NCBI GenBank assembly: GCA_001600815.1
Contig: BCKZ01000010.1
Location: 451,527-487,103, forward strand
Reading direction: 5' to 3'
DNA: 35,577 bases
Origin: Alloascoidea hylecoeti
Taxonomy: Eukaryota
Positions 12,568-35,577 of the stretch are shown here, piece after piece (position 1 is the first letter of the stretch; the number at the start of each line of letters is the position of its first letter). The translations under genes and the position numbers were made by a program. The notes below the pieces were generated by a model. It did not search any database, had not been told where the DNA came from, and worked only from the letters and a program-made list of their open reading frames with translations.

Positions 12568-15500
12568 TCAAGTTCTTGATCTCTTATCTTGACTTACATT
12601 TGGTCCATTTTCTGGAAGAGACCTTTTAAGACGATTAACTTGAGGTCTTGGTAAGCCGCCTCTTGGTTGCGGTAATTTTGATCCTCTATTAGCATGACTT
12701 CCTCTTATCGCTCCAGGTCTACCAGGGAGATTAGAAGAAACATTTTTATTGACCGTACCTTCTTGATTGTGGGAAATCTTAGGAGCATTCGATTGATTCA
12801 TCATTTGAGAATTAACTTGATTCATTAACTGTTGATTGTGTTGATTCATCATCTGCGAATTCACTTGATTCATTAATTGTTGATTTTGCAAATTCGGTGT
12901 TGTTGGCCGTTGACGAGGAGGACCCTGTAATCGTTGCATTTGTTGGGGCTGATTATTGTGGTTTTGATTTTGACCTAATATCACACTATGTCCTTGAGGA
13001 TTATGATTTGTAACTTGATGTACTGGTATCTGACTAGGTGAGATATTATGCCCCGTGTTAGGGTTGGGGTTAGTCCTATTTGCTGGCGATGATTGTTGTC
13101 CTCCTCCAGAGATTTGTTGTCTCAATGAATCTCGTTCTGCTTGAATCTTTTCGATTTTTCCTTGTAGTAACTTGTTCTTCATTTCAAAAGATGACGCTGC
13201 TTTAACCTTATTATTCGCATCTTCTAATTTCTTCTTCAGATCTGTAATCACATTTGAGTTCTCAGAATCACCCTTACCTGGACTTTGCTTTTCTAATTCA
13301 ATAACCTTAGCATCAAATGTTTTTTGTAAGGCTTCCTCCTTTTCTTTTAAATCAGCATCCATTTGAGCCTTGATAATAGCCACCTTTCGCTCGGCGATTT
13401 CTTTTAGTTTTGCTTCACTTGGAGCACGTAATGTCTTTTTAGCTTTCCCAACAGCCTCCTCAATTTGTTCTTCAAGTTGCTTTTTATGTTCTTCATTTGA
13501 AATAAACCCCTCACCTGGGGTTGTACCAGCTGTACCATCAGTGGAAGTTGATTTTAAAGTTGTAATTTCCAATTGGAGAGAATCTATTTGTTTTTGGTAA
13601 TTTTCTTGAAGGGCTTGTTTTTCTTTTAGATAGTTGATTTTGGCAGTCTCAACCGCTTCCGATGACGATGAGTCCCCAGCAACGTTGGATTGTGCAGCTG
13701 CTAACTTGCCTTCCAATTCACTAACTTGTGTTTCAAGTCTTGTTTTCTCTTCCTTATTCTTTTCCACTTGAGATTTTAGCTCAGAAATTTCTTTATTGTA
13801 CTTTTCGATTTGATCGTTAATAGATTCTTTATATTTTGAATGTGATTCATTTGCTTGTGCTAGCTCTTCTGATAAATTCTTGTAATCATCCCTTAGCTTT
13901 TTACTCTCATCTCTTCTAGATTTTAACTTTTGAATAGATTCATTCTTTAAATTTTCAAATCTAGTCTGTAATGTGATCAATTCGGCTTTAGTAGTTTCAT
14001 ATTCTGTTGCATTTCCAGCGACAGCTCCTGCCTTAGCTTGTAATTCTTCGATTTGTTTTGTTTTACTTTCAAGTGCTTTCGTATGAACTGCAACTAAAGT
14101 TTCTTTCTGATTCTTTAATGTTTCAGACAACTTCTCTAATTCTGACTTTTGACTAGTCAATTCCTCAATATTCTTTTCTAATTCTTCTACCTTTAATTTA
14201 CAAGCATTGAACTCAGCAGGATCAACCCGGTCATATTTTTGCATAATTGATTGTGCACGACTTTTCCATCTATCTTTATCTTGTTCAAGCAGTGTTATTG
14301 TATTGATTTTTAATTCAAGCTCAGCTTTAACATCCGAAAGTTCACCTATTACCAAGGGAGGAAAAATGTTAGTTGTCACACTTTTGAAAAAAAAATAAAA
14401 AATAAAAAATAACAAAATTACTTACTCTTCAATGGCTCTATTGCTGTTTGTAGTCGATCAATTTCTTTTGTCAGCTCAACCAGTCTTTTTCCTTTATGTT
14501 CATTTTCAGTTCTCAATGATCCATTACTTTCTCTTAAGATATTCAATTGATTGATTTTCTCAAGAAGTTCCTCATGAGCAGCATTCTGGCGAAGAGTGTC
14601 ATCCCCTCTTTGTCTTTCCTTTACCAACTCCATTCTGGTTTCTTCGAGTGTTGAAGTTGTATGGTCTAATCGTTGTTTTAAGCGTTTTGCTTCTTGGACA
14701 GAAACTTCAAGTTGTGTATCAACAATTTCCTTTTCACGACGTAAGAATCGAATGATATCTCTAAATTCTTCGGTTGATCCATCTATTGTGTCAGCTGCTG
14801 GGGTGAAACTGTCGGATTTGTTTGCATCTTTATTGTTATTGGCAGTTAATATTTCAAGTTGATTGTGTAAGAGTTGATTTTGTGAAACTAAATCTTCAGC
14901 CCTATTTTTCAAGTTGGAGATTTCTTCGTTAAGTGCAGATTTCTGAGAATCCCAACTTGATTGACTTGACTGAAGAATACTTTCAGCTCTAGTTGCATTA
15001 TTTCTTGTCTCTTGTAACTCTTCCTTAAACTTATTATATTCTGCCTTCAGTTCCTGGTACTGTTTACTACTATTGGCATGCTTCATTAATTCTTCTTGGT
15101 AATTTATTTCGGCTTGTTTAGAAATTTCGGCTTGGCGACCAAGATCACTTCTTAACCCTTCATTATTTTGATTCAATTTTGATACTTCACTAGACAAATT
15201 TGTGTTCTCGCTTATCAGATTATTTCTTTCTTTTTGTAAAGCTTCAATAGATGAACCTGATTGTCGCTGAGTTTCTTTCAATTTCTTATTCACAGCTTCC
15301 AACTCTTCATTAAGATAACTTAATCGACTCTCTGCTTCCTTCAGTTTACCTTCTGTAGTCAATTTATATTCATCAAACGATTCCGTCATACTTTGTAATG
15401 CTTCTTCGGCAGTACTTGCAATATTTTTAAATTCCTCCACATTTTTATTACCGCTCTCAATCTGACTTCTTGAAGATTCAAGTTCAATATTAAGAACTTT

Positions 15501-18500
15501 AATTTGATCACGCAGCGCTGTTTCATCAACGGTAGATGTGGTTTCTTCTTGTTGTTTTTCTAGAGCAGCTAACTGTTGTGAAGTTACCTTTAACTCCCCG
15601 GTCTTTGATTGAAGTTGTTCCTGTAAGCTACCAATTGACTCCTGAAACTTCTCTAATTGATTTGTTAGATTATTAATCTTATCTTGCGATGCCTTATCTT
15701 CAAAATCTTTTCGTAGTTGTAAAGCACGTAATTCTAAAGTTTGATCTTCTAAACGTTTCTTTGATGATTTTAATTCAGATTGAATAGATTCAATTTCATT
15801 CTCTAACCGACGTTGACGTTCAGATTCAGACCGTTCACGATCAGTTTGAATATTTTGTAAGTTTATCACGAGTGAATTCAACCTAGTTCTTTCTTCAGTT
15901 AATGATTTATTATCTTCATTTAATCTCTTTTCAACCGAATTCCAAAGTGATTTCTCTGCTCTTAAGTTCATAATTTCAGATTTTAAAGATTCACTTGTTG
16001 ATTTAGCATCAACTAAATCTTCTGCAACTTGTTGTGTTCTAATATCTTGTTTTGATAAAGTATTTTGAAGTTCATTATTTCTCTTTTGTAGTTCTTCATT
16101 TTCAGATTTTGAATACCTAATATTCTCCAACAAATTTTTATATCTTTCATCAAATAATTCTAATTGGCTTTGTGCACGAGCTAATTGAACACTGATTGAA
16201 GATTTGTCATTTGAAAGTTGATCAATTTGATCGTTTAATGTCTTAATTGTAATATTGGTCTCGTTTCTAAATGCTTCATATGAAGATTCAACCTCTTGTA
16301 ATTTAGTCTCGATTTCTTTATTAGTTTCTAATAGTTGTTGTTCATGTTCATTAGAAGAAAGAGATTGGGCATTACCGGTATTACTAGCTCCATGGGAGGA
16401 AAGTAATTCTCTAAACATATCCCGTTCCCTCCTCATGGCCTCGGACTTGGTTTGAAGGCTAGAGAGCTCTTCTTGAAGTGTGATGATTGCCTCCTTAGCC
16501 TCAGATACAGCTAAAGTTTCCAAATCTTCAATTTTTTGTTGAGATTGAGACTCATTATTTTCCATTTCTCTACCCAACTGTCTTGTAATTTTTAATAATT
16601 CTTGATTTTTCTTCTGTAAATCAACAACATTCTTAAAAACAACCAATCTTTGAGATATAAGACGATCTGTATCTGATTCATGTTGCTCTTCCAAAGTGCC
16701 ATCTAAAGCTTTTTGTAAAGCATACCTTTCTTCAGAAGATAATGGACCTTCATCATCATCTCTAATTTCAATCTGAATTAATAATTGTTGAACTTGTCTA
16801 CCCAAATCATTAACTTGTTTATTTAAGATCGTAATTTCCAAACTTTTATCTTTAACAAGTAATTCATTATTTCTAACTTGAGAGAATAATGCATCTTTAT
16901 CATTATTACTGTTTTCTAATAAGACACTCATTTCAGCTAATTGCTCCTCTAAAAATTCAGCGCGTTCTTTTGTTGCTTGAATGACAGGTGCTTTAGACTC
17001 CAACTCTTCAATAAATGTATCAATCTGCTGCTGCATGAGTTCCTTGGTTTTACGCTCCTGTTCTAATTGTTTTTGCATGACAATGAAATCTGAATATAAT
17101 TGACTAAGACTAAGTGAGCCTTTTTGTTTAGAAATGATAGCTTTTGCTGAAGGCGACAATATACCAAGAGTTGTTGAACCATATCTAGATGGAGTAGAAG
17201 GAGTAGGTGTGCCATGTATTGACATTTCACCATCACCATTTGGTTCTTCTGATGCGACAGCCAATTCCTCAATAGTATTCTCCAATTCAGATATTCTTGC
17301 TTTTTGTTCAATATTTAAAGATTTATATTTATCAACTTCATGTTTCAAANATGCTTGTTCATCGATAATTGAATTTCTAATATTTTCCAAATTATTTTCA
17401 AGCTGTTCTATTCTATCTCTTCTTTCTTCAGCAGATACTTTATATAAATTAACAAGTCTATCTTTAGCAGACATTTCTTTTGCAAAATCTTCNTGATAAC
17501 TAGATTTTTCATCTTGTAATCTTTTAATACTCATTAATGATTGATCTAAATCTTGGCAAGATTTTTCAAATCTCGATTTTAGGATATCATTAGAACTGGT
17601 GAGGGTAGCCAATTCAGATCTTGATGATTCTAATTCAGACTGTAAAGTACCCATTAATGATATTTTTTCTTTTCTGTAAGAACTAAATTCTTGAGTTTTA
17701 TTTGTTAATTCAGTATTTAGCCAATCATTACTTTTTTTGGTCATTTCTAATTCTGTTTCAAGTTGTTGAGCACGAAATTTTGAAGTAATAAAAGAAGATC
17801 GTTCTTGTTGTGCTTGATTTTCTAAATCACTAATTAATTTCCTATTCTCTGATTGATTTTTATGAAGTTGATCAATTTCTTGTTTCAAAGAAAAAATTTC
17901 AGAATTTTTCTTTTCAAGTAATTCTAATGTTTGTCTCTTTTCAGCATTTAATTGAGTTATTTTTTGATTAAATATTTTACCTTCACCAGTATTAGTTGAA
18001 GAAGATTCAGAGTTTTTTTGAACTTTTTCTAAAAGTTTTTCTTTATCTGATTCAAGAGTTTTGATTAATTCTTTTAATTGTTCAGCTTCTTGTTTTGTAG
18101 ATTTTAATCGGAAATTAATAGCAGAAATACGGGTACTAGCAGTATGTGATATTTGTCCATTCGTTACTTCAAGTCTTAATTTTTCCGTTTTTAAATTTTC
18201 TAATTCATTTGCTCGAAGTGTAATACTATCCAAGATCTCCTTTGGAAGATTTGAGACAATTTGAATGGAGCATGATAAAAAAGAAGAAAGATAATTGGGG
18301 TCTGGCTCATCGATTGTCTGTTCTTTATTAATATCTTTAGCTTGAAGAGGGGTTCTTTTCAAGACTGGTTGTCGAGCTTCATTGGTAGGAAGTGGAGACG
18401 ATGGGTCTTGATGAACAGAAATTGATGTTTTTGGTGACCTAGGTACCAAAATGACTTCCGGGTCATCATTTCCATTTTTAAAAGGCTGTTGTTGTTGATT

Positions 18501-18830
18501 GGGTTCTAGGGGATCTTTAAAATTTTCAGTTAGGTCTTCGCTCGTGTATTGTTTATCTAAATGAGCAGGACTATCATTAGCATCTGTCATAGACACATCT
18601 TGAGTATAGGAGTCATCCGCCACAGGCTCAACCCCTTTAGTTACTTCAACTCTAGTGCTTTCTTCATTAGATACAGGGGAAGTGGACGAAATTTCCTTCG
18701 AGGTTTCTATTTCTTCATTATTAGGACTCTCTGAAGAGATGACAACTTCCTCTGTTGATGGAACGTCTTTCGAAAAAGACTCATCATTATCGTTTTCAGT
18801 CATCGCGATCACACTCAGCACTGGATGCAA
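12568..18830 (-). CDS. MLP1: Nuclear basket coiled-coil protein Mlp1/TPR; exons 18830-14426 and 14345-12568
   Basis: TPR/Mlp motifs WLNTEL, SLSQLYSD, FIEELESKAP, LISQRLVVFKNVVDLQKKNQELL, NYQEELMKHA, IIRFLRREKEI, LNILRESN and RWKSRAQSIMQKYDRVDP. Intron GTAAGT(14425)..AACTAAC..TAG(14346) joins the ORFs in frame (PLK/SELSDV). The start may be 18803 (MTEND). Two N bases occur at 17350 and 17493. Confidence 0.93.
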
Positions 18831-19661
18831 AAAGTACTATGAAAGATAATACTAAAAATACAATTGAAAGGGGTAACGATGAAGAGATTTAACAGAGGAT
18901 GTTATCTTTAAAAATTGAGTGGTGAAGACGCGAATTCCGGGTAACAATAAATGAGTACATTTTAAACTTGCTTTTATTCTGCTAATATACACTTGAGCCG
19001 ATTTGAATTGTCACCGAGTGAAAATATTCAAATATTAATATTACCAAAGTCAATACCCTTCTAGCTGAAAGTAAGGTGTAGTGTTTCGTCAGTGAAGGGT
19101 AATGGGACAAAACATGCTTCTCGGTCACCCCAAACTGTTGCCATGTGCCAGTACTATGTAGTTGGGTTCAAACCATGGTCGAAATGCTCGCAATCTATAG
19201 GTGTATAAGCCACGCATCGGCCAAAATATCTGGGTTGGAGACCGCTAATGCAGCCTGCTCGACCTCTGGGAGAATTGTGTGTGCTCGCTTTTAACTCCCC
19301 ATAAATACTTTCTTTCTATTTTTTTTACTCCTTTTCGTTTGAATTTTTCTTTTTCTTTTTTCTTGAAGCTGTAAATTATAAGATTTATGATGATTATTGA
19401 CTGTCTATAGCTACAGGTATTTGGCTTGGATTGGGTATGAGCTTGTCTCGCCTCGATGCTCGCCGGAATTCCAAATTTGTGTTCGAATGTTCCGCGATGC
19501 GCAGCCTACTACAGTTCCAATGTCACTCAACAGCCCATAGACTCCATGCTACGAGTCTATAGTATAACGGTGGGGTTCTGGTCCCAAAATGTTTCCCTCA
19601 GAATACGTGAAACTTTTGATAAACTTTATTTGTGAATATATCTTTTTTGGGCCATTCGAAA

Positions 19662-20410
19662 TAAATGACCTGGCCTGGCTTGACTACGGAGAAAAAGTAA
19701 TATCTCGTACGTGTCGGATCAGATCATTCCTATGTTAAAATTGGTAGAATTGTACAAGCCGCCAAAGTTATCTTCGGGATATCGTAGGGGTGTGATAAGA
19801 TAATTAGAAAAAGGTCCTATGATGCGATATTCTGCTACGGAGAAGTTTCAGGGAAAGACATACTTAGAGGCTTCTAACAAAAATGTGGTATTACGGGTAG
19901 CAATACCTTTTATTCAAGATTTTGAAGCTAGTATAATATAGGACAGTTCCCCAATTTATGTATCAAAAAAGCAGGAGGGAAATCAAATGGAACAACTATG
20001 CTCCTGGACAAGCATAGTTGTTCCCGACATAAATCCCATTGAAACCCGCTTAGCACAATCCCCCAAAGTGACCAGATAAAAATTATAAAGACTTATACAA
20101 AATGAAAGCTGAACTTAATAAGGTCAAGAATCGTGTTTCAGTTATATTCTCAGAATTATGGGAACAGTTAGATCAATCACGTCTTGACCACTCCTCGAAT
20201 ACTTATCGCATTCATGCAATGCGACTAAAACTAATAGTAGAACTAAAAGGAAGGAATAGTAACTTTTAAAATTGCATTAAGTTATGTTTAGACAGGTTAT
20301 GAAACGTTGTTATTTATATTTTATTTGGTAATAATTCCTTGAGAATTGTCTTTTAATCAAGATTATATGTTAATACATTTTATGTTTTCCAGAAACAGAA
20401 AGGCCCAGTG
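19662..20410 (+). mobile_element. Degenerate Tc1/mariner DDE transposase relic (left copy)
   Basis: One frame from 19891 reads LRVAIPFIQDFEASII*DSSPIYVSK...WTSIVVPDINPIE (D at 19942, E at 20041; compare FQQDNAP.H and WP..SPDLNPIE). Upstream SDQ lies at 19714-19722. Downstream ELWEQLD...MRLKLIVELKGRNSNF* resembles Tc1 C-termini. A possible end is GGCCCAGTG-TA at 20402-20412. Confidence 0.75.
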
Positions 20411-20477
20411 TATAGTAGATAAACGTTAACAGATATTGGGTTACATTTTTGTTTTACTAAGAAACAAACATACCAAG

Positions 20478-20975
20478 TTATAAACATAAAATCTTGATTA
20501 AAGGGGAAATTCTCAAGTAAATATTACCAAATAAAATATAAATAAATTTCCCTAACCTTTTGAAGTATAATTGGAGACAATTCTAGCTGTCTTTTGTCTG
20601 GTCGCTTTTGAGATTATGCCTGACGGGTTTCAATGTGGGCTTGGACCAACACAGCTGTTCCATCCTGTTGAAAAATAATACTTTTAAAAGTTTGAATAAA
20701 AAGTATTTCTACCCGTTAAAATACTTTTAAGCTTCACTAAAACCTCTTCGTATTATGTATAAACGAATATCGCGTCTTTTTTCTCGAACTTTTTTGTAAT
20801 TCCTTTACTAGACCCATACGATTTGGAAGATAACTTTGACCTTACTTGAGTTGGGCTGGTATACTCTAAGGTGGCGGTGACTTCATTACAAAAGGGGGTC
20901 CAACATAGGTGTGACCTGATCCAACCAAATGACCGATATATTACCTTTGCTCTGTAGTAGACCATGTCAGTCATA
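20478..20975 (-). mobile_element. Degenerate Tc1/mariner transposase relic (right copy, inverted relative to the left)
   Basis: The minus strand aligns block-wise with 19662-20375. It reads VIWLDQ (~20930-20915; compare VIWSDE) and FIQTFKSIIFQQDG (~20700-20660). It lacks ~190 bp present in the left copy. Confidence 0.75.
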
Positions 20976-21005
20976 TTTTTTTATTAGTCAAAAATGAGTA
21001 CATAC

Positions 21006-21222
21006 ATTTTAATGAACTTTGCAGAAATCTCAATCTCCTTTGATACTAAATTTATAGATATCAGTTGTTACAAGGTTGAACATTTTGGGGGTTGTTCAAA
21101 ATGTTGGCTCTACTCTTAGACCAAAAACATAATATACTGAGTTATCTATTCAAAATATCCTATGTAGCGAAAATAAGATCCGATAGAAACATTACAAAGA
21201 TCTTATTCGGGAACTTTTGTAT
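21006..21222. repeat. Dispersed repeat, blocks A (21006-21113) and B (21119-21222), both also found near 35 kb
   Basis: A matches 35112-35223 in direct orientation (CAGAAATCTCAATCT, AAATTTATAGATATCAGT, AACATTTTGGGGG, TTCAAAATGTTGGCTCTAC). B matches the reverse complement of 34944-35062 (GACCAAAA..ACTGA..TCTATTCAAAAT..AAATAAGA..TCCGA). Confidence 0.8.
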
Positions 21223-21464
21223 GCTTTCAGGTGAGATTAAGTATTCAACACAACTTTTGACACGGAAGAGGAAGGTAGTCAAATTGATTATAAATGCAAA
21301 TAGGCCCACTTTTAAAATATTGTGGTTAGGAATCAGCCCGAAGATAAGAGAGAGGGTATTATGTGCGGTTCGATGAAGCTACAAGGTTAAGATGAGTATG
21401 GATAATCAAAGCAAGAAATGAAAGAGTTTCATAATTGTTAAAAGTTTCATAGATTTAAATGTGT

Positions 21465-22298
21465 TTAATATGCTTTGTTTGCGAATTCTATCATGGGTTT
21501 TGCTATCTTTGAATACTGAGCAATAAATCTTCTATAATAGTTTGCTATTCCTAAGAATGATTGTGCTTCTTTATCATTTTTGGGTACCGGCCATTCCCTA
21601 ATGGTGGCTACTTTCTTATTATCCGGCATGATCCCATTACTTGTGATCTTATGTCCTAAAAAGTCTAATTCTTTCAACATAAATGCACATTTTTTCTTCT
21701 TTGCTCTAAGTTTGTTAGCTCTAAGTTTCTCCAATACCAGTTTGACATGTTTTTCATGCTCTTTCTCGTTCTTTGAGTATATTAAAATGTCATCTAAATA
21801 TACTATCACAAACTTGCCCTTAAAATCTGCTAAAACATCATTCATAACGTACTGAAAGGTGGCCGGGGCATTGGTTAACCCAAACGGCATTACATTCCAT
21901 TCAAAATGTCCATCTTTCGTTGTGAATCCTGTTTTCGCCCTATCTGATTCCTTTATAACAATTTGGTGATAGCCAGATATCAAGTCTAACTTCGAGAATA
22001 CTTTAGCACCATGTAATTGATCTAACAAGTCATTGATTACCGGTAAAGGATACCTATTCTTAATCGTTTGGTTGTTTAGAAGTCTATAATCAACACATAA
22101 CCTCATACTACCATCTTTTTTCTTCACAAATAACACTGGTGCCGAATATGGGGATTGTGACCTAGATATTGACCCATTCTCCAACAGTTCTTTTAACTGT
22201 CGTTGTAGTTCTTCATTATCTTTATATGACATTCTATAGGGAGCTCTAGCCGGTGGTTTAGACCCTCCCATTCTCTCTATGTTATGATAACACTGGTG
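21465..22298 (-). pseudogene. Ty3/gypsy reverse-transcriptase fragment (left arm)
   Basis: Motifs PYRMS, SPYSAPVLFVKKKDGSMRLCVDYRLLN, FSKLDLISGYHQI, VMPFGLTNAPATFQ, VYLDDILIYS, FLGH and QSFLGIANYYRRFI. It is truncated after EFANK. No gag, protease, RNase H, integrase or LTR is recognisable. Confidence 0.95.
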
Positions 22299-22319
22299 CC
22301 GAATATGGGGATTGTGACC

Positions 22320-23180
22320 AATATACAACCAAAAGGAGTATCGGACAGACACCACCAGTTTTATCATAACATAGAGAGAATGGGAGGGTCTAAACCACCG
22401 GCTAGAGCTCCCTATAGAATGTCATATAAAGATAATGAAGAACTACAACGACAGTTAAAAGAACTGTTGGAGAATGGGTCAATATCTAGGTCACAATCCC
22501 CATATTCGGCACCAGTGTTATTTGTGAAGAAAAAAGATGGTAGTATGAGGTTATGTGTTGATTATAGACTTCTAAACAACCAAACGATTAAGAATAGGTA
22601 TCCTTTACCGGTAATCAATGACTTGTTAGATCAATTACATGGTGCTAAAGTATTCTCGAAGTTAGACTTGATATCTGGCTATCACCAAATTGTTATAAAG
22701 GAATCAGATAGGGCGAAAACAGGATTCACAACGAAAGATGGACATTTTGAATGGAATGTAATGCCGTTTGGGTTAACCAATGCCCCGGCCACCTTTCAGT
22801 ACGTTATGAATGATGTTTTAGCAGATTTTAAGGGCAAGTTTGTGATAGTATATTTAGATGACATTTTAATATACTCAAAGAACGAGAAAGAGCATGAAAA
22901 ACATGTCAAACTGGTATTGGAGAAACTTAGAGCTAACAAACTTAGAGCAAAGAAGAAAAAATGTGCATTTATGTTGAAAGAATTAGACTTTTTAGGACAT
23001 AAGATCACAAGTAATGGGATCATGCCGGATAATAAGAAAGTAGCCACCATTAGGGAATGGCCGGTACCCAAAAATGATAAAGAAGCACAATCATTCTTAG
23101 GACTACTATTATAGAAGATTTATTGCTCAGTATTCAAAGATAGCAAAACCCATGATAGAATTCGCAAACAAAGCATATTA
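22320..23180 (+). pseudogene. Ty3/gypsy reverse-transcriptase fragment (right arm), frameshifted at ~23103
   Basis: Same RT motifs including YLDD. It extends slightly further 5' into the loop (QPKGVSDRHHQFYHNIE). GGACTACTATT versus GGAATAGCAAACTATT in the left arm is a 5-nt deletion plus one substitution. Confidence 0.95.
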
Positions 23181-24094
23181 AACACATTTAAATCTATGAA
23201 CTTTTAACAATTATGAAACTCTTTCATTTCTTGCTTTGATTATCCATACTAATCTTAACCTTATAGCTTCATCGAACCGCACATAATACCCTCTCTCTTA
23301 TCTTCGGGCTGCTTCCTAACCACAATATTTTAAAAGTAGGCCTATAATCAATTTTGCTACTTTCCATGTAAAAAGTTTATAACACTATCCATTACAATAT
23401 AAAACTTTATATGTAGTTATAGCGCTATGATACTAATTTGTAAAAAAAAAACTTGCACTATTTTAAAGAAAGGTCATTTAATACTTCCGTTATCACTAAT
23501 GGTGAAAATAGTAGTATTGGATCAGGACGAGGTGTGATCACTTTAATGGTTGATTTTGATTCGAAATCGAACAAGTCATAGGTTTATCCGACAGCCATTT
23601 AAAATAACCTATTTTAGGATCTATGGAATGAATAGTTTTAAATTTCATATGATCATTTGAATTTCCATAGATATTGGCAGCCGATACATATTTAGTCATA
23701 TCGAGATATGATTGTAGCATGTAAGAAGAAAGTACAGAGTATGAAGGGATGATATCTTAAAGGAATTAAATGCCTTTAATGATTCGGTTGGTTTTGTGCT
23801 GATAGATCAGGAACTGTAACACAATTTTACCATAGTTAAGAACAAATTTGCAGAAAAGGTATATTTGCACATAGGCCTTGCACTATGGTATACCATAGGC
23901 TTATAAAGTTATATAGTAACACCGAGCGTCCTGTTGATAAATGTGGATATTGCGATTGTAAGTTATATGGTCATCTCCCGATATTCTACCTAATTGTACG
24001 CTATAGCTATACGCAAATAAACAACAGTTATAAATATAGATGCACATATGGGTCTCTATAATTATATCTATAGCAATTATATGATTAGTAGCTA

Positions 24095-24240
24095 GTTGGG
24101 AGTTTTAGCTAGTTGAAAGAGAGCTATAAAAGTTTGTCACATCGAATCCATGGAGACTTTTCTGATTTCTCCAATAAGTGAATGGATCTCCATCCGATAA
24201 AACATTTTTAAAACTATTTGTATTCTTGCTGAGGTTTGAA
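24095..24240 (-). mobile_element. Possible hAT transposase C-terminal dimerisation-domain relic
   Basis: The minus strand reads QQEYK*F ... DPFTYWRNQK...FY[frameshift]ALFQLAK, reminiscent of the hAT E..Y..DPL.WW....YP.L..LA pattern. The match is short and degenerate. Confidence 0.3.
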
Positions 24241-24812
24241 CTTTCCATTATAACTAGGCCTATGGTTTGAATTAGTACTGTTGATATTATAACCATTTGA
24301 TAAGTTATTATCAGTTTCCAAAATAGAAACTGTAGGTGATAATTATAATGAAACTAGACCGAATATAGCGAAAATGGTTGGTAAATTTATTCTTCAAGGT
24401 TGATAATATTATAGAAGATGATTTAGTAGATGATAATTCATTATATAATTACCAGTTGATATAATATTTTTACTTGCATGATGATTTTAACTATGCATAT
24501 TGATTCCCAAAACGAATATTAGGATCTTCTATCATTTCATTGTAATATGGTAATTTGTTCGAATTTTGTAAATTTAAATGATTGATTTCCACTATCTCAT
24601 GACTTAACCCTAGAAATATAAACAAATCGTATTAGTGTCTTAACCTATTTCAAAGATGTTTAGCTATTAGTATAATAATAATCATTGTTAAAAATTGAAG
24701 TAACAAATAAAAAAAAAATTTTTTTTTTTTTTTGCTTTTTTAAGAAATATATATGTACCTTTTGTAATAATTATAATTATTTTCTTATCCACCACTATTT
24801 ATGATCTTTCTT

Positions 24813-27800
24813 TTAATTTCTTCTTCTTCTAGAACTTACTTTCTTTAAGAGAGATGTAACTCGATTAGTATTTTTCTTTTTCTTTGTATCTTCTTTTTTA
24901 TTGGAACGTAATTCTACTTCTCCAATTGTACTATCATCATCAAAAGAAGACGATAAAGATTCTCTTGATTTATTTCGAAATATATGTTTTGAAAAATTCT
25001 TACCTTTATTACCATTCGGAGTTAAATTGGTTGTCGGATTTGGTGTATTTGAAACACTCTGTGATTTCCCTGCAAGTGTTGATGTTGATGTTGATGATGG
25101 TGATGGAGATGGAGCTATTGATATTGAATTTCTAATCGGAATTGTTGCGGGTGCAGAATTTGGCGTCATTTTTGGCTCGATGGAAGTTTCGGTTATTGGG
25201 GTTTCAACTTTTATCTCCAATGGTTCATTCTCATCTATATGTAAATTTGATATCGGAGTGGTTGGCCTTTTGAATGATCTTGTTGAATTTGTTCTATGAT
25301 GATTGATTGAAGATGATGATCTTGCCAATTCTGGTTTTCTACTTGTTGGTGTAATTGATCTTGGAGTAATGGAAATTTTAGGTGTTGAAGATTCAGTTTG
25401 ATTTGAATCTTCTATAGGAATAATATTATGATTTGCTATAAATTCTTCATGAGATTCATATTCTTCATCCCTAATACCTGCTAATTTAACCATACTTTTT
25501 GTTTTTGTTAATTTTCTGTTTAAATCATTTGTTGATAAACTTGAAATCATATGATCAGATGGCGTTAAACTTGATCTTCTAAACTGTGATACTTCAGTTG
25601 AGATTATTGATGAGTTATCACCTTCATTAAATGAATCTAATTCAGGTATACAATCTTCGATCGTAGCATCACTTAAATTAATTGAAATTGATGTATTTGT
25701 GTTTGAATCATATGAAGCATGCATTGAATCCGATTTCAATGATGTAGAAGATAATGAATTAACTCTATTTGATTTTGCAATTGAAGGTGATGATCTTAAA
25801 GATAGATCATTTGGTGATAATGGATCAATTGAAGAATTATCATCATCATCTTTTGAATTTATTGTCTTATCATATGAAAATGAAAACGCAGGATCTAATG
25901 ATCTAACACTGTTTTCTTTTACTAATGGAATTGATGATGTTCTTATTGATGATAGATTTTTCATAGAATTTAATCGTCCTGATCTTGATGGATGGAAGTT
26001 ATTTGTTGGAGAGCTTGTTTTTCTTCTTGGTTCATTTTGTGATTGCGATTGTAATTGTGGTTGTAATTCTTGTCTTTTAAGAGATCCTCTTATAATTGAT
26101 TGTAATTGAACATTATCATCACTATTTTTGATTTCTTGATCGATTCTTTTGTTCTTATTTCTCAACGATTCACCACGAATAATAGATTGTAATTGAATGT
26201 TATCATCATTATTACTAATTTCTTCAACAATTATTCTATTCTTATTTCTAATCGAAACACCACGAATAATTGATTGTAATTGAACATTGTCATCATCATT
26301 ATTAATTTCTTTATCAATTAATCTATTCTTATTTCTCAACAAAGTACCACGAACAATAGATTGTAATTTAATAATTGGTGATTTTCTAATTTTAAAAGTA
26401 ATTTCTTTTAATAAATTATTATAAATACTTCTTTGTTTTTTACCTTTAATTAATGATTGTAATAAAATTGTTGACCCAAATTCTAAAGTTCTTTGAAATT
26501 CTAAATTTGATCTTCTAAATAATTTTTTTCTTGAAATTGATTGAAGTTTAATAATACCTAATGAATATTGATTTAATTGATTTTTAAATTTTTTAAATTT
26601 TAAATCATATTGATTTTTTTTAATTAATGATTGTAATTGAATTAATTTTTTGAGATTATTATTTTCATTTAATTGATTTTTAATATTATTAATAGATTTC
26701 TTTAAGTTCTTACTTTTTATTAATGATGTTAATAAAACTTGTGAATTTAAATTTAAATTTTTATTTAAATCATTATTTAATTGATTTTGAAAATTTCTTA
26801 AAAGGTAACCTCTTGAAATATTTTGTAATAAAATTGTATCATTTTCAAGAATTGTTAATTTTTCTTTTAATGATTTTAAAACTAATTTTTTTTTAAAAAT
26901 TGATTGTAAATTAGTTATTTCATCATTAATAACAACATCATTAAACAATTTATCTTTAATTAAATTTAAATCATTTTGAATTTTTTTTTGACGAATTATT
27001 GATTGTAAAGAAACTATTTCATTTTCATTATTAAAAAATGCTTGTTTAATCATGTTATTAATTGAATCTAAAACAAGTTTTTTTCTTATTATTGATTGAA
27101 GTTTTGTTAAATTTTCAGAATTATCAATTAATTTATTAAATATTTCATTTTGATTATTCTTATATTTTAAACTTCTTGATAATGATTGTAATTTAATAAT
27201 ATCTTTTTCATATTTATTAATTGATTTTAATAATTGATTAGTTGATTTTTGTAAATTTTTTAAACGTAATAAAGATTGTAATTGAATAATTGATATAGTT
27301 GATGATTCATTTGATAATTCATTTATTAAAATTTCATTTGAATTTCGAATTCTTTGTGCTTTTGTTATAGCTTGAAGTTTTTCAATATTTGGAATTTCAA
27401 GTTTTAATTCATTAATAGTTTTATTGGTAAAATTTCTATATAAATTACCTTTTATTAATGATTGAATTTTAATAATAGAATCTACATTATTTTCATTTTC
27501 AAGTTTATCAGATAATTCATTTAAATTTTTTTTAGATAATTTTAATCTTAGTAAAGCCTGAAAAGCAACGATATTATTTGAATCTTTTGATAACTCGTTT
27601 ATGATATTTTGATTTGAATTTCGATATTTTTTAGCTTTTATTATAGCCTGAAGATTTTCAATATTTGAAAAGTTTAATTTTGATTTTAATTCATTTAAAG
27701 ACTTTCTAGTTGAATGACTTCTCACTAATGATTGAAATTTAATAATAGATTCTTTATTATTATCAAATTTATTAGATATTTCATTTAAATTATTTTTAAT

Positions 27801-30263
27801 TAAGTATCTTCTTATTAAAGATTGTAAATTTGTTAAATCATTAAGACAATTTTCTTTCAATTCACTAGATATATCATCATTATATTTTCGACGATATAGT
27901 TCACCTCGAGCCAAAGCTTGTAAAATTGTGATATTCAAAAACTCTTTAGATAATCCATTCAAAACGTTTTCCTTTGATCCACGATATAATTTACTTTTTG
28001 CTATAGCTTGAAAATGTTTTAAAGTTTCTGAAGAATCGTTAGTCAATTCATTTTTTAACTTTTCATTGGAATGACGGAGTAAATAACCTCTTGCTATAGA
28101 TTGAACAATAACAATGGAATCATGGTTATCATCGAACTTATCAGATAATTCTTTCAGGGTATGTTTGGCTAATTGTAGTCTAAGTAAGGCCTGAAGAGCT
28201 GCAACATTTGAATTTTCAGTAAGATCGTTTATAAGCTTATCATTAGAATTATGATATAAGCGGCCTTTCACTATAGCTTGAAGAGCTTCAATATTTGAGT
28301 TATTTGATAAGTCGTTTATAAATCTTTCATTTGAATTACGAAATAACTCGCCTTTTACTATAGCTTGAAAAACTGCAAGATTTGAATTTTCAGTTATTTC
28401 ATTTATAATCTTATCATTATAACCACGGTATAATTGACCTTTAATTATAGCTTGAAGAGCTTCAATATTTGACTTTGACTGTTCAATAAGATTATCTATA
28501 AGCTTATAATTTGAATCACGAAATAATTCACCTCTTACTATAGCTTGAAGAGCTGTAATATTTGAATTTTTTGATAATTCACTTTTAAATCTCTCATTTG
28601 AATCACGAAGTAAATAGCCTCTTGTTAAAGATTGAATATCAACAATGGAATCATGATTATCATCAAATTCATCAGATAATTCTTTCAGGGTATGTTTAGC
28701 TAGTTGTAATCTGAGCAAGGCCTGAAGAGCTTCAATATTTGAGTTTCCAGTTATTTCATTTAAAACTTTAGCTTTAGAATCACGATGTAAGTAAGATCTG
28801 GCCATAGCCTGAAAAGTTAAAATATTTGAAGATGATTTAAATAATTCATTAAATAAGTTTTCTTTTGACTGACGATATAATTCACCTCTTGTTAAAGCTT
28901 GAAATTTTACGATATCTGATTCATAATCATAATCAACATTTTCTTCTTCGTCTTCTTCATTATCATCATCTTCAATAAAAGCGATATTTCCTTCATCATC
29001 ATCTTCTTCTCCATCACTTGACAAAGAATCAAGAAAACTTAAATCTTTTAATATGTCGTCATCATTATCATCATCTTCTTCAATAAAAGCTAAATCAGCA
29101 ACTTGTATATTATCAACTTCATTTAATTCATTTAATTCATTATTTTGATTATTTGATAAATCATCAGAAGTACTGTTATTATTAATTATTGCATCTAATG
29201 GAATTTCATGAGTTATAAAAGATTCATCAGGATTAATTGATTCATTATCATATTCATCAGAAGAAAAAATTAAGGCGTTATCATTATCATTATCATTATC
29301 ATTATCATTATAAATTGAATATGATGAAGAATTTGAAGAATGTGTAAAAGATTCAAATGATTTTGGTGGAAATGCTTCAAGTATTTCTTTTTGAATAGAT
29401 TTAATATTTTCATCTAGATCTATTTGTGAATCATTTTCATTTTCATCAAGTTGTAATTCGTTTTGATCTTCATGTTGAGATTGTGATTGTTGATCATTTA
29501 AATTTAAATTATCATTTACTATAGGAATATGAGATTCAAGAATTTTATAATGAACAGGAGATAATGATATTTGAGTAGTTTCAAAATTATTTTGATTTTC
29601 AATAGATTTATTATGATTTTGATTTTTCAATTGTAATGTATCATTTTGAATAGATTGTTGTAGTTGAAATTCTGGATTTTTAGCAATTATTGATAATGAA
29701 GATTTTAGATCATTTAATAACCAAACCCCAATTATTTTTAAGATAAATTTAAATTTTATTAACAATAATATTAAACAAGAAGTTAAAAATTGAAAAGAAG
29801 TTATATTTAAAATGAAAAATGGTAAAATTGTATTTGGAGGTGGGATTTTGAAGTTTTGAATAAAAAATTTAACCGAAGAGATCAAAGAAACGAAAGCTTT
29901 TGGTCTGTCAACGTTGATATCGATTAAAAATAATTGCAAGGGGTCCAATGGGCGCTCGGGAGTGAGGATAGTTGGCATGTCCAGAGAGAAGACATTCGTT
30001 TCTTCGTCACTGTAATCGTCGAATTGAGATGGATGGGGTTCGAATCCGAATTCCGATTCGGAAGGGATGGAGGTGGTGGTAACGGTAGTGGCCGTAGCAG
30101 CGATAGTGGAAGCCAGGTCGAACAGGTCGAACGTGTCGAACGTGTCGAACGTGTCGAACGTGTCTCCGAAGTCCGCACCGGGGGCGGCGGGAGAAGTCAG
30201 CTGGAGTCTCTGGGCTGTGGACTGTTTGTTAGTAAAGTTACGGACGCGACGCGACACCCACAT
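24813..30263 (-). CDS. Large protein with ~32 tandem IQ-like motifs, an N-terminal hydrophobic segment, an acidic region and a Ser-rich basic tail
   Basis: 1816-aa uninterrupted ATG ORF. [I/L]xx[L/F]Q[A/S]xxRGxLxR repeats every ~29-31 aa across 28920-26070. No CH, RasGAP or motor domain is recognisable. Confidence 0.85.
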   Translation of the reverse strand: MWVSRRVRNFTNKQSTAQRLQLTSPAAPGADFGDTFDTFDTFDTFDLFDLASTIAATATTVTTTSIPSESEFGFEPHPSQFDDYSDEETNVFSLDMPTILTPERPLDPLQLFLIDINVDRPKAFVSLISSVKFFIQNFKIPPPNTILPFFILNITSFQFLTSCLILLLIKFKFILKIIGVWLLNDLKSSLSIIAKNPEFQLQQSIQNDTLQLKNQNHNKSIENQNNFETTQISLSPVHYKILESHIPIVNDNLNLNDQQSQSQHEDQNELQLDENENDSQIDLDENIKSIQKEILEAFPPKSFESFTHSSNSSSYSIYNDNDNDNDNDNALIFSSDEYDNESINPDESFITHEIPLDAIINNNSTSDDLSNNQNNELNELNEVDNIQVADLAFIEEDDDNDDDILKDLSFLDSLSSDGEEDDDEGNIAFIEDDDNEEDEEENVDYDYESDIVKFQALTRGELYRQSKENLFNELFKSSSNILTFQAMARSYLHRDSKAKVLNEITGNSNIEALQALLRLQLAKHTLKELSDEFDDNHDSIVDIQSLTRGYLLRDSNERFKSELSKNSNITALQAIVRGELFRDSNYKLIDNLIEQSKSNIEALQAIIKGQLYRGYNDKIINEITENSNLAVFQAIVKGELFRNSNERFINDLSNNSNIEALQAIVKGRLYHNSNDKLINDLTENSNVAALQALLRLQLAKHTLKELSDKFDDNHDSIVIVQSIARGYLLRHSNEKLKNELTNDSSETLKHFQAIAKSKLYRGSKENVLNGLSKEFLNITILQALARGELYRRKYNDDISSELKENCLNDLTNLQSLIRRYLIKNNLNEISNKFDNNKESIIKFQSLVRSHSTRKSLNELKSKLNFSNIENLQAIIKAKKYRNSNQNIINELSKDSNNIVAFQALLRLKLSKKNLNELSDKLENENNVDSIIKIQSLIKGNLYRNFTNKTINELKLEIPNIEKLQAITKAQRIRNSNEILINELSNESSTISIIQLQSLLRLKNLQKSTNQLLKSINKYEKDIIKLQSLSRSLKYKNNQNEIFNKLIDNSENLTKLQSIIRKKLVLDSINNMIKQAFFNNENEIVSLQSIIRQKKIQNDLNLIKDKLFNDVVINDEITNLQSIFKKKLVLKSLKEKLTILENDTILLQNISRGYLLRNFQNQLNNDLNKNLNLNSQVLLTSLIKSKNLKKSINNIKNQLNENNNLKKLIQLQSLIKKNQYDLKFKKFKNQLNQYSLGIIKLQSISRKKLFRRSNLEFQRTLEFGSTILLQSLIKGKKQRSIYNNLLKEITFKIRKSPIIKLQSIVRGTLLRNKNRLIDKEINNDDDNVQLQSIIRGVSIRNKNRIIVEEISNNDDNIQLQSIIRGESLRNKNKRIDQEIKNSDDNVQLQSIIRGSLKRQELQPQLQSQSQNEPRRKTSSPTNNFHPSRSGRLNSMKNLSSIRTSSIPLVKENSVRSLDPAFSFSYDKTINSKDDDDNSSIDPLSPNDLSLRSSPSIAKSNRVNSLSSTSLKSDSMHASYDSNTNTSISINLSDATIEDCIPELDSFNEGDNSSIISTEVSQFRRSSLTPSDHMISSLSTNDLNRKLTKTKSMVKLAGIRDEEYESHEEFIANHNIIPIEDSNQTESSTPKISITPRSITPTSRKPELARSSSSINHHRTNSTRSFKRPTTPISNLHIDENEPLEIKVETPITETSIEPKMTPNSAPATIPIRNSISIAPSPSPSSTSTSTLAGKSQSVSNTPNPTTNLTPNGNKGKNFSKHIFRNKSRESLSSSFDDDSTIGEVELRSNKKEDTKKKKNTNRVTSLLKKVSSRRRRN
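30114..30164. repeat. 9-bp coding tandem repeat (GTCGAACGT / GTCGAACAG), ~5.5 copies, encoding DTF/DLF
   Basis: CAGGTCGAACAGGTCGAACGTGTCGAACGTGTCGAACGTGTCGAACGTGTC. Confidence 0.9.
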
Positions 30264-34943: not shown

Positions 34944-35223
34944 ATAAAAACCTTCGAGAATGTATACTTTATATAATCTTCTTCGGAAGGTCTTATTTCT
35001 TATTATATACAATTACTACTATGTAAATTTTGAATAGAGAATTCAGTTCGAAGGTTTTGGTCCATACAATTGAAATCTTTAATCTACAACAAATTACCAA
35101 TGGAGCTATGTATTTTAATGAATTTTACAGAAATCTCAATCTTTTAATGATAAAAATTTATAGATATCAGTAGTTACAGGGTTAAACATTTTGGGGGAGG
35201 GGGTTTCAAAATGTTGGCTCTAC
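34944..35223. repeat. Second copy of the dispersed repeat blocks (B inverted 34944-35062; A direct 35112-35223)
   Basis: Visual alignment to 21006-21222. Confidence 0.8.
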
Positions 35224-35428: not shown

Positions 35429-35577
35429 TCATAAACGGCTAGCACGCTTTTCTTTTATTTCAAGGGGATCCATCTGAAATATTTTATCAGGATTCATAAT
35501 ATTCAAAGGATCAATTGCATGTTTAATGGTTCTCATTAAATCAATGGCCGGTAATCCCAATTCATATTCTAAAGAAT
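35429..35577 (-). CDS. DLD1: D-lactate dehydrogenase (cytochrome) C-terminus, 5'-partial; not in the ORF track
   Basis: The minus strand reads SLEYELGLPAIDLMRTIKHAIDPLNIMNPDKIFQMDPLEIKEKRASRL*, matching the Dld1/FAD-oxidase_C ELG..DLMR.IK.AIDP..IMNPDKIF motif. Confidence 0.85.
   Translation of the reverse strand, partial: SLEYELGLPAIDLMRTIKHAIDPLNIMNPDKIFQMDPLEIKEKRASRL

Follow-up and report, generated by a model that had tools for sequence, protein, structure and literature searches.

A young Ty3/gypsy reverse transcriptase palindrome in a gene-free island of the Alloascoidea hylecoeti genome: a possible hairpin source of small interfering RNAs

What does a yeast genome keep in six kilobases that hold no gene? 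The question is raised by a stretch of scaffold C10 of Alloascoidea hylecoeti (C10:451527-487103; 35,577 nt, called the window below), analysed in an A+T-rich short-read assembly of 24.8 Mb in 136 contigs with N gaps, whose genes and their order are those expected of a budding yeast. An original prediction, made from the letters of this stretch, had described an island containing two fold-backs derived from transposable elements (TEs), and had proposed that it is either a TE-hairpin cluster comparable to small-RNA clusters or an inverted-repeat centromere. The survey of open reading frames (ORFs) bore out the gene-free island: 18804-24812 is the longest gap of the window and lacks host ORFs of at least 80 aa, the frames present being those of a Ty3 reverse transcriptase (RT), antisense shadows thereof, and one 91-aa ORF without family. 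At ~6.0 kb it is also the longest N-free gap between ORFs of at least 150 aa in 245.6 kb of C10, the runners-up measuring 4.1, 3.3, and 3.2 kb. The island is an ordinary debris-collecting intergene with one young fold-back, a Ty3/gypsy RT palindrome. For this palindrome we favor, with a rough probability of 0.45, a role as a hairpin source of small interfering RNAs (siRNAs) of the kind found in Naumovozyma castellii; an inert scar is nearly as likely.

The palindrome consists of two arms of 753 nt each (21546-22298 and 22353-23105), which are 100% complementary and separated by a spacer of 54 nt. Both arms matched the Pfam family RVT_1 over the full domain (E 2e-41), and the young Ty3 RT palindrome of the original prediction is thus real. 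Arm homology reaches outward to 21252 and 23377 (arms of ~1.05 kb), with four substitutions and two indel events in 21300-21545 and decay beyond. The Ty3 homology stops at 21472 and 23174, and the remaining ~200 bp per arm are non-Ty3 sequence that was found at this single locus in the genome search. The outer left arm (21252-21471, minus strand) is ~97% identical to the right arm, its homology fading at 21252-21300. It is followed by the left copy of the RT fragment (21472-22286, minus strand), which has an open frame with a YLDD motif, and is devoid of long terminal repeats (LTRs), RNase H, integrase, and gag. Then come a templated insert of 33 nt (22287-22319, plus strand), an exact direct copy of 22130-22162, and a stretch (22320-22364, plus strand) that comparison with the copies on C26 and C45 identified as native Ty3 sequence and the single-copy part of the hairpin loop. 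The right copy of the RT fragment (22365-23174, plus strand) is an exact mirror over 738 bp and is then frameshifted by a small indel near 23103-23105; the outer right arm (23175-23377, plus strand) mirrors the outer left one. The outer arm did not match the Ty3 LTR, and its identification as such was rejected.

The fragment belongs to a Ty3/gypsy family with the order gag-PR-RT-RH-IN and LTRs, of which the window holds the RT part only. The RT arms are 99.9% identical to each other, 94.4% identical to the nearest family copy (on C26), and 91-92% identical to full-length elements. Thus, since the arms are far closer to each other than to any other copy, the palindrome arose by local duplication. 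The RT sequence carries 13 synonymous and six non-synonymous changes private to the locus in ~813 bp, and the private non-synonymous changes together with the outer-arm substitutions put the age of the palindrome at about 1% or less. A domesticated RT was set aside, since the frame, though open in the left arm, lacks RNase H, the private changes are few, and the right arm carries the frameshift.

An assembly made from short reads, with N gaps, might produce such a structure by itself, either by reading one collapsed repeat as two arms or by misjoining two loci during scaffolding. We compared four public sequencing runs (X1, X3, X4, and X5); X5 was too sparse, leaving three informative runs that represent three samples from three studies. 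At 20808, X3 and X4 depart from the sequence of the window and are therefore from other strains, while X1 may have supplied the assembly, which leaves two independent runs. The results showed that in X1, X3, and X4 alike the left-flank contigs end at 21363 and the right-flank contigs begin at 23282, which are mirror positions. The four substitutions and two indel events that separate the arms also speak against an artefact, as both arm-specific indel alleles are present in the runs: the left-arm allele in X1 and X3, and the right-arm allele in X4 (contig 23044-23311). The arm depth in X3 was 16.4-21.4 against ~8.3 in the flanks, and an X1 contig without differences (22130-22316) covers one centre junction with 157 nt on one side and 30 nt on the other, one nt short of the 31-nt rule of the tool used. 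What favors an artefact, besides the kind of assembly, is that the whole palindrome was spanned by no contig, and that the arm depth in X1 (~24 against 19-24 in the flanks, ~1.1-1.2x) is near single-copy. We consider an artefact highly improbable, and the palindrome exists in nature.

The centre of the palindrome is the scar of a double template switch, as the 33-nt insert is bounded by microhomologies natural to the element, 7 nt on one side and 11/12 nt on the other. The LTR-less RT fragment with ~200 bp of flank has been duplicated in inverted orientation; a nascent strand copying the RT antisense would have folded back, slipped by ~157 nt, and gone on to copy the arm in the outward direction, in the course of either reverse transcription (as snap-back complementary DNA, cDNA) or break repair. 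At the outer-arm rate, ~12 substitutions would be expected in the inner arms, and none was observed (P about 6e-6), suggesting either arm-to-arm conversion, which would maintain the identity of the inner arms, or an identity that could be the assembler's consensus.

Two further head-to-head Ty3 palindromes share the 5'-in, 3'-out layout of the one in the window and carry LTR sequence at each outer end. The one on C8 (C8:758027-763727) has arms of 2365 bp that are 100% identical, with a spacer of 967 bp; the one on C5 (C5:1218164-1220640) has arms of 491 bp that are 99.8% identical and comprise an integrase end and LTR, and its spacer region holds more integrase and 481 N. Their layout fits snap-back of minus-strand cDNA. 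The arms in the window end in unique flank and not in an LTR, and a break-repair fold-back fits them equally well. Since several palindromes of copia elements are laid out in the opposite way, there is no single geometry; kilobase copia RT palindromes of converging layout lie in the last 2.9 kb of C12 (locus L126) and at C5:661-3360 (L137), with overall identities of 95% and 98%.

How might such a palindrome work? An RNA stem of ~1 kb would result from divergent transcription at the promoter of the MLP1-like gene on the left, or from read-through out of the IQ-repeat protein gene on the right of the island (24813-30263, minus strand), which is transcribed toward the palindrome and has its 3' end ~1.4 kb short of the right arm. 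A TATA-like, T-rich tract at ~19300-19365 on the plus strand is a place from which divergent transcription into the island could start. A Dcr1-type enzyme would then cut the stem into siRNAs for Argonaute, aimed at the young Ty3 family, and the locus would act like the palindromic siRNA loci of N. castellii, as one of many in the genome. A transcript would fold into one long stem (z -81 against 20 shuffles). The N. castellii palindromes are made of Ty fragments, and palindromic siRNA-producing loci of that species were reportedly described by Drinnenberg et al. in 2009. In N. castellii, 74.1% of the siRNA reads came from palindromic loci, and most siRNA loci correspond to transposons and Y' repeats (bioRxiv 2019.12.12.873604 = PMC7528652).

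The genome encodes the proteins that such a pathway would use. There is one Argonaute, whose open frame of 983 aa includes PAZ and PIWI, and an RNase III of 704 aa with an N-terminal domain, two double-stranded RNA-binding domains, and intact catalytic motifs, which is of the Dcr1 type and may also serve as Rnt1. The other RNase III paralogues are one of 340 aa, one that is split, one that is broken, and one of 713 aa with degenerate motifs; the family (L046-L050) is located at C19:264k, C1:2117k, C3:836k, C19:20k, and C1:1481k. The original prediction of a TE-hairpin cluster remains plausible for the Ty3 palindrome alone, with Argonaute and a Dcr1-type enzyme at hand, and fails for the island as a cluster because the two Tc1/mariner copies described below are independent insertions and the other debris is single-armed. 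A search of the genome for an RNA-dependent RNA polymerase (RdRP) gave no match, with the control of the search also silent. RdRP has been lost outside Lipomycetales (PMC13017519), which agrees with this result, and double-stranded RNA must therefore come from hairpins or convergent transcripts. Potential targets are present, as full-length copies of the Ty3 family have open frames and LTR identities of 99.5% and 98.6%, and 110-138 of the 834 21-mers in an arm match each of four full-length copies exactly.

Several observations weigh against a role of the palindrome as a hairpin-siRNA source. The silent control weakens the RdRP result, and the possible origin of the inner-arm identity in the assembler's consensus, the near single-copy arm depth in X1, and the missing spanning contig bear on the structure itself. 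Perfect matches to intact elements are limited to 13-17% of the arm 21-mers, so that the hairpin would guide imperfectly, and the palindrome has no LTR promoter joined to it. The mismatches between the arms showed no strand bias toward G-U pairs (two against two among four transitions, a test of low power), and no such bias was found across 19 inverted repeats of the genome (chi2 22.6, df 19, p 0.26). In Candida albicans, Argonaute and Dcr1 are present, and yet a hairpin did not silence (PMC7175516).

The rival explanation is that an accident of replication, repair, or reverse transcription left a fold-back that is not usefully transcribed and drifts in a genome that readily forms inverted duplications, its arms being converted because of their structure. 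The lack of G-U bias would be expected of such a scar, the remaining contents of the island are all dead debris, and the young age, with six private non-synonymous changes and four outer-arm substitutions, also speaks for it. Inverted duplications of host genes occur nearby; three pairs were found among nine inverted matches in the 245.6 kb of C10, so that mutation alone can supply fold-backs, which also counts against a dedicated source. At C10:414801-422753, for example, two copies of a phosphoglycerate-mutase-like gene in inverted orientation, 99% identical over 1194 bp, enclose an aspartyl protease gene. On the other hand, a long inverted repeat whose arms lie close together is fragile in yeast (PMC3855049), and yet the palindrome was seen in three samples that show strain differences. 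The concentration of inverted repeats at retroelement loci likewise argues against mere accident, though the Tc1 relics used in that comparison are of greater age and the windows examined for them were shorter. An inert scar is thus nearly as likely as the hairpin-siRNA role.

To this concentration we turned in a sample of ~0.9 Mb of the 24.8 Mb, in which inverted repeats of at least 80 bp at no less than 85% identity were counted. They were found at nine of 14 copia RT loci (sampled from roughly 40 in the RVT_2 list), as compared with one of 37 six-kb tiles of C10 from which the island tile was excluded (Fisher p 6e-6) and one of 40 Tc1/DDE loci (p 3e-6); this contrast is overstated, since coding DNA makes up most of the control tiles, and the Tc1 loci have a greater age and were examined in windows of 3-4.7 kb. 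By inspection, the arms of the nine repeats at copia loci consist of copia pol in six cases, a Tc1-like sequence in one, and a short shared repeat in one, and one is without assignment; two of the nine are on the scaffold of the window, C10, at 60 kb and 619 kb. Ten of 11 further TE-bearing regions also contained an inverted repeat, one of them (on C6) between host paralogues and three on C5. In the open-licence literature, no description of such loci in the A. hylecoeti genome was found. What most deserves to be followed is this gathering of fold-backs at retroelement loci across the genome. It is unlikely, on our estimate, that this yeast routinely turns retroelement cDNA into heritable fold-backs, through the capture of RT snap-back products at numerous sites and through arm conversion, and retains them for an RdRP-free RNA interference with an expanded Dicer family. 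If it did, the fold-backs would amount to a transposon memory that is scattered over the genome, updates itself, and functions as piRNA clusters do, and certain palindromes, such as the one on C8, might double as centromeres.

The alternative put forward in the original prediction, a regional inverted-repeat centromere of the Komagataella phaffii or Candida tropicalis type, finds support in the largest N-free ORF gap of the 245.6 kb, in the near-identical arms, and in the finding that inverted-repeat centromeres are widespread in budding yeasts (PMC12711049). The K. phaffii centromeres have 2-kb arms around a 1-kb core and occur once per chromosome (PMC5010909), whereas the arms in the window measure ~1.05 kb and the spacer 54 nt. 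Nor is the repeat alone on its scaffold, as C10 carries the two retroelement inverted repeats at 60 kb and 619 kb, which are shorter and older, and C5 has three separate inverted-repeat TE sites, the scaffolds not being whole chromosomes. The island is not A+T-rich, with a GC content of 0.337 against 0.306 over the 245.6 kb. Its neighbors are PFK, HOP1, ICP55, a PCI-domain gene, MLP1, an SXM1-like gene, UTP5, an HPT1-like gene, and SGM1, none of which, to our knowledge, is linked to a centromere in Saccharomyces cerevisiae; ATO/ADP1-like genes 55-60 kb away are the sole weak hint of centromere linkage. None of the 58 RVT_2 matches falls in the island, and no Ty3 LTR matched there, so that neither copia/Ty5 nor LTR sequence indicates a Ty5-cluster centromere.

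Better candidates lie elsewhere. The C8 palindrome sits among MRP4-, LAG1-, HSE1-, PRS-, and ETP1-like genes, whose S. cerevisiae counterparts presumably flank CEN8, and it is a better candidate for an inverted-repeat centromere than the window. C21 opens with a cluster of copia RT copies that contains two inverted repeats and is a candidate retrotransposon-cluster centromere; it is followed, within C21:1-20000, by an RRM gene, a PGS1-like ORF, RER1, and BUD3. RER1, which flanks CEN1 in Phaffomycetales (PMC12711049), is ~8 kb away from this cluster. At C7:1098253-1118252, LST8-like and RFX genes neighbor a copia cluster that lies at a scaffold end and contains small inverted repeats. As centromeres move (PMC12711049), the synteny no more than weakens the centromere idea. 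In geometry, in number per chromosome, and in neighboring genes the island does not resemble a centromere, and we regard this role as very unlikely. An inverted repeat in a gene-free gap is accordingly a poor basis for a centromere call in the A. hylecoeti genome unless synteny is added.

The second fold-back of the original prediction, an old inverted pair of Tc1/mariner elements, was confirmed as two convergent relics and not as a fold-back. The left copy (19590-20393, plus strand) contains the C-terminal part of a DDE transposase and the 3' non-coding end, and is 71-72% identical to its closest dispersed copies; the right copy (20443-20978, minus strand) has an internal deletion. The ends of the copies, where terminal inverted repeats and a TA target duplication would be expected, are heavily decayed. 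Direct searches with Pfam gave no match to either copy, and the DDE homology was detected by tblastn with a DDE_3 ORF from the same genome (L061; E 1e-5 for the left copy and 0.03 for the right). The family occurs at 21 other loci on 13 scaffolds, and such debris is therefore common in ordinary intergenes, which the original prediction had named among the signs of neutral TE graveyard DNA. The two copies share 67.7% identity over 439 columns, the family mean being 64% (230 pairs). In a tree that took in 20 of the 21 other loci (C21:406k was left out), not one of 200 bootstrap trees joined them as sisters, and the right copy grouped instead with the copy at C11:449k (L086; 98/98), which spans the same internal deletion. 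Since the copies are 68% identical, are never sisters, and one shares its deletion with a copy on another scaffold, two independent insertions are the simplest account, and a fold-back pair was rejected. At this identity the pair would also be a poor source of double-stranded RNA. True Tc1-derived hairpins, unlike the pair in the window, are present on C13 (L058:1937-2344, 83%) and C27 (L156:152-639, 77%). Six loci (L062, L064, L065, L066, L079, and L080) have open frames of 432-445 aa with DDE_3 or of 1007-1118 aa with a hAT dimerisation domain, and are possibly intact or domesticated DNA transposases. The right Tc1 copy ends ~270-320 bp from the palindrome, so that two TE classes do lie ~280 bp apart, as had been described. 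That each is represented by its catalytic domain only was not borne out, as the Ty3 arms also contain ~200 bp of unique non-Ty3 sequence and the Tc1 copies include 3' non-coding DNA.

The remaining debris is of several kinds. The dispersed repeat reported from the island is present at 21006-21113 (plus strand) and has two copies, being 85% identical to 35112-35223 of the window, 14 kb away, with no further copy found in the genome. The segment 20930-21471 (plus strand), which crosses the outer end of the left arm, is unique and resembles decayed coding sequence; the part scanned (to 21300) had no Pfam match. A feature missed earlier, at 23459-23828 (minus strand), is not a transposon; it is what remains of a broken host gene from a multi-copy Bul1-like family, and seven other loci match it. 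The piece shows 65-70% amino acid identity to L025 and L028, and the paralog L025 matches Bul1_C (E 5.5e-6). A solo LTR was considered for this piece and rejected, as it is Bul1-like coding debris, and an Atlas search with the Bul1-like paralog gave no usable match. Broken genes of this family (L025, L028, L109, and the piece in the window) are dispersed, number at least nine, and often lie beside transposon relics.

The possible hAT relic of the original prediction, which came without coordinates and which we took to be a stop-free stretch of 82 codons at 24108-24353 (minus strand), found no support. Twelve read-through frames had no match in Pfam up to E 10, the three hAT loci of the genome had no tblastn match in the island, and homology to the hAT C-terminal dimerisation domain was absent. 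Among 1.84 billion protein representatives the stretch had a single match, to a bacterial-type Ig-repeat protein (E 1.2e-8, summed over ten Ig-like repeats), which we take as chance. A hAT relic was therefore rejected.

The left boundary of the island is a gene for an MLP1/TPR-like nucleoporin (12568-18803, minus strand; two ORFs with a probable intron), inferred to be MLP1, the transcription of which leads away from the island. A partial copy of its 5' region, matching Nucleoprot-TPR, is located 60 kb off at C10:530448-531680 and is flanked by two ATO-family paralogues. The region upstream of MLP1 (18850-19560) is unique, without a second copy in the genome or an Rfam match, and contains CCGGGTAA at 18937-18944, which we take to be a Reb1-like site. 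An Rfam scan at the gathering score yielded 0 matches, and no tRNA was found in the island. A 9.2-kb gap 10 kb to the right was considered as a TE cluster and rejected, as it holds FAD-oxidase genes in a tandem array and 6 kb of N. From 35460-35577 of the window onward, tandem copies of the FAD-linked oxidase follow with N gaps of 1.8 and 4.2 kb between them, a collapsed array.

In budding yeasts, the loss of the target transposons makes it difficult to observe how palindromic siRNA loci originate and whether they are selected. A. hylecoeti offers young, intact Ty3 copies and palindromes of several ages with readable junctions, and the alleles private to each locus would let siRNAs be assigned to single loci.

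Set beside known systems, the island shares with the Ty5-cluster centromeres of Saccharomycetes and Pichiomycetes (PMC13017519, PMC12711049) the retroelement debris in a gene-free gap; unlike them, it has neither copia/Ty5 RT nor LTR, and such clusters occur elsewhere in the genome, many at scaffold ends. With the K. phaffii centromeres (PMC5010909) it has in common kilobase, near-identical inverted arms in a ~6-kb gene-free gap, but the arms are ~1 kb of retrotransposon RT, the spacer is ~60 bp and not a 1-kb core, and there are several repeats per scaffold. The quasi-palindromes and template-switch fold-backs of S. cerevisiae (PMC3855049, PMC8604942) resemble the palindrome in the close, long inverted repeat, the microhomology junctions, and the homogenisation of the arms, whereas the one described here is natural, is present in several samples, and is part of a genome-wide retroelement bias. 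The likeness to the palindromic loci of N. castellii, on which the proposed siRNA role is modelled, would lie in an inverted repeat of the chromosome that could be transcribed into a long RNA hairpin, in a host with a canonical Argonaute and a non-canonical Dicer. Unlike those loci, the palindrome of A. hylecoeti coexists with intact young Ty3 copies, and its host carries additional short RNase III paralogues as well as one that is catalytically dead.

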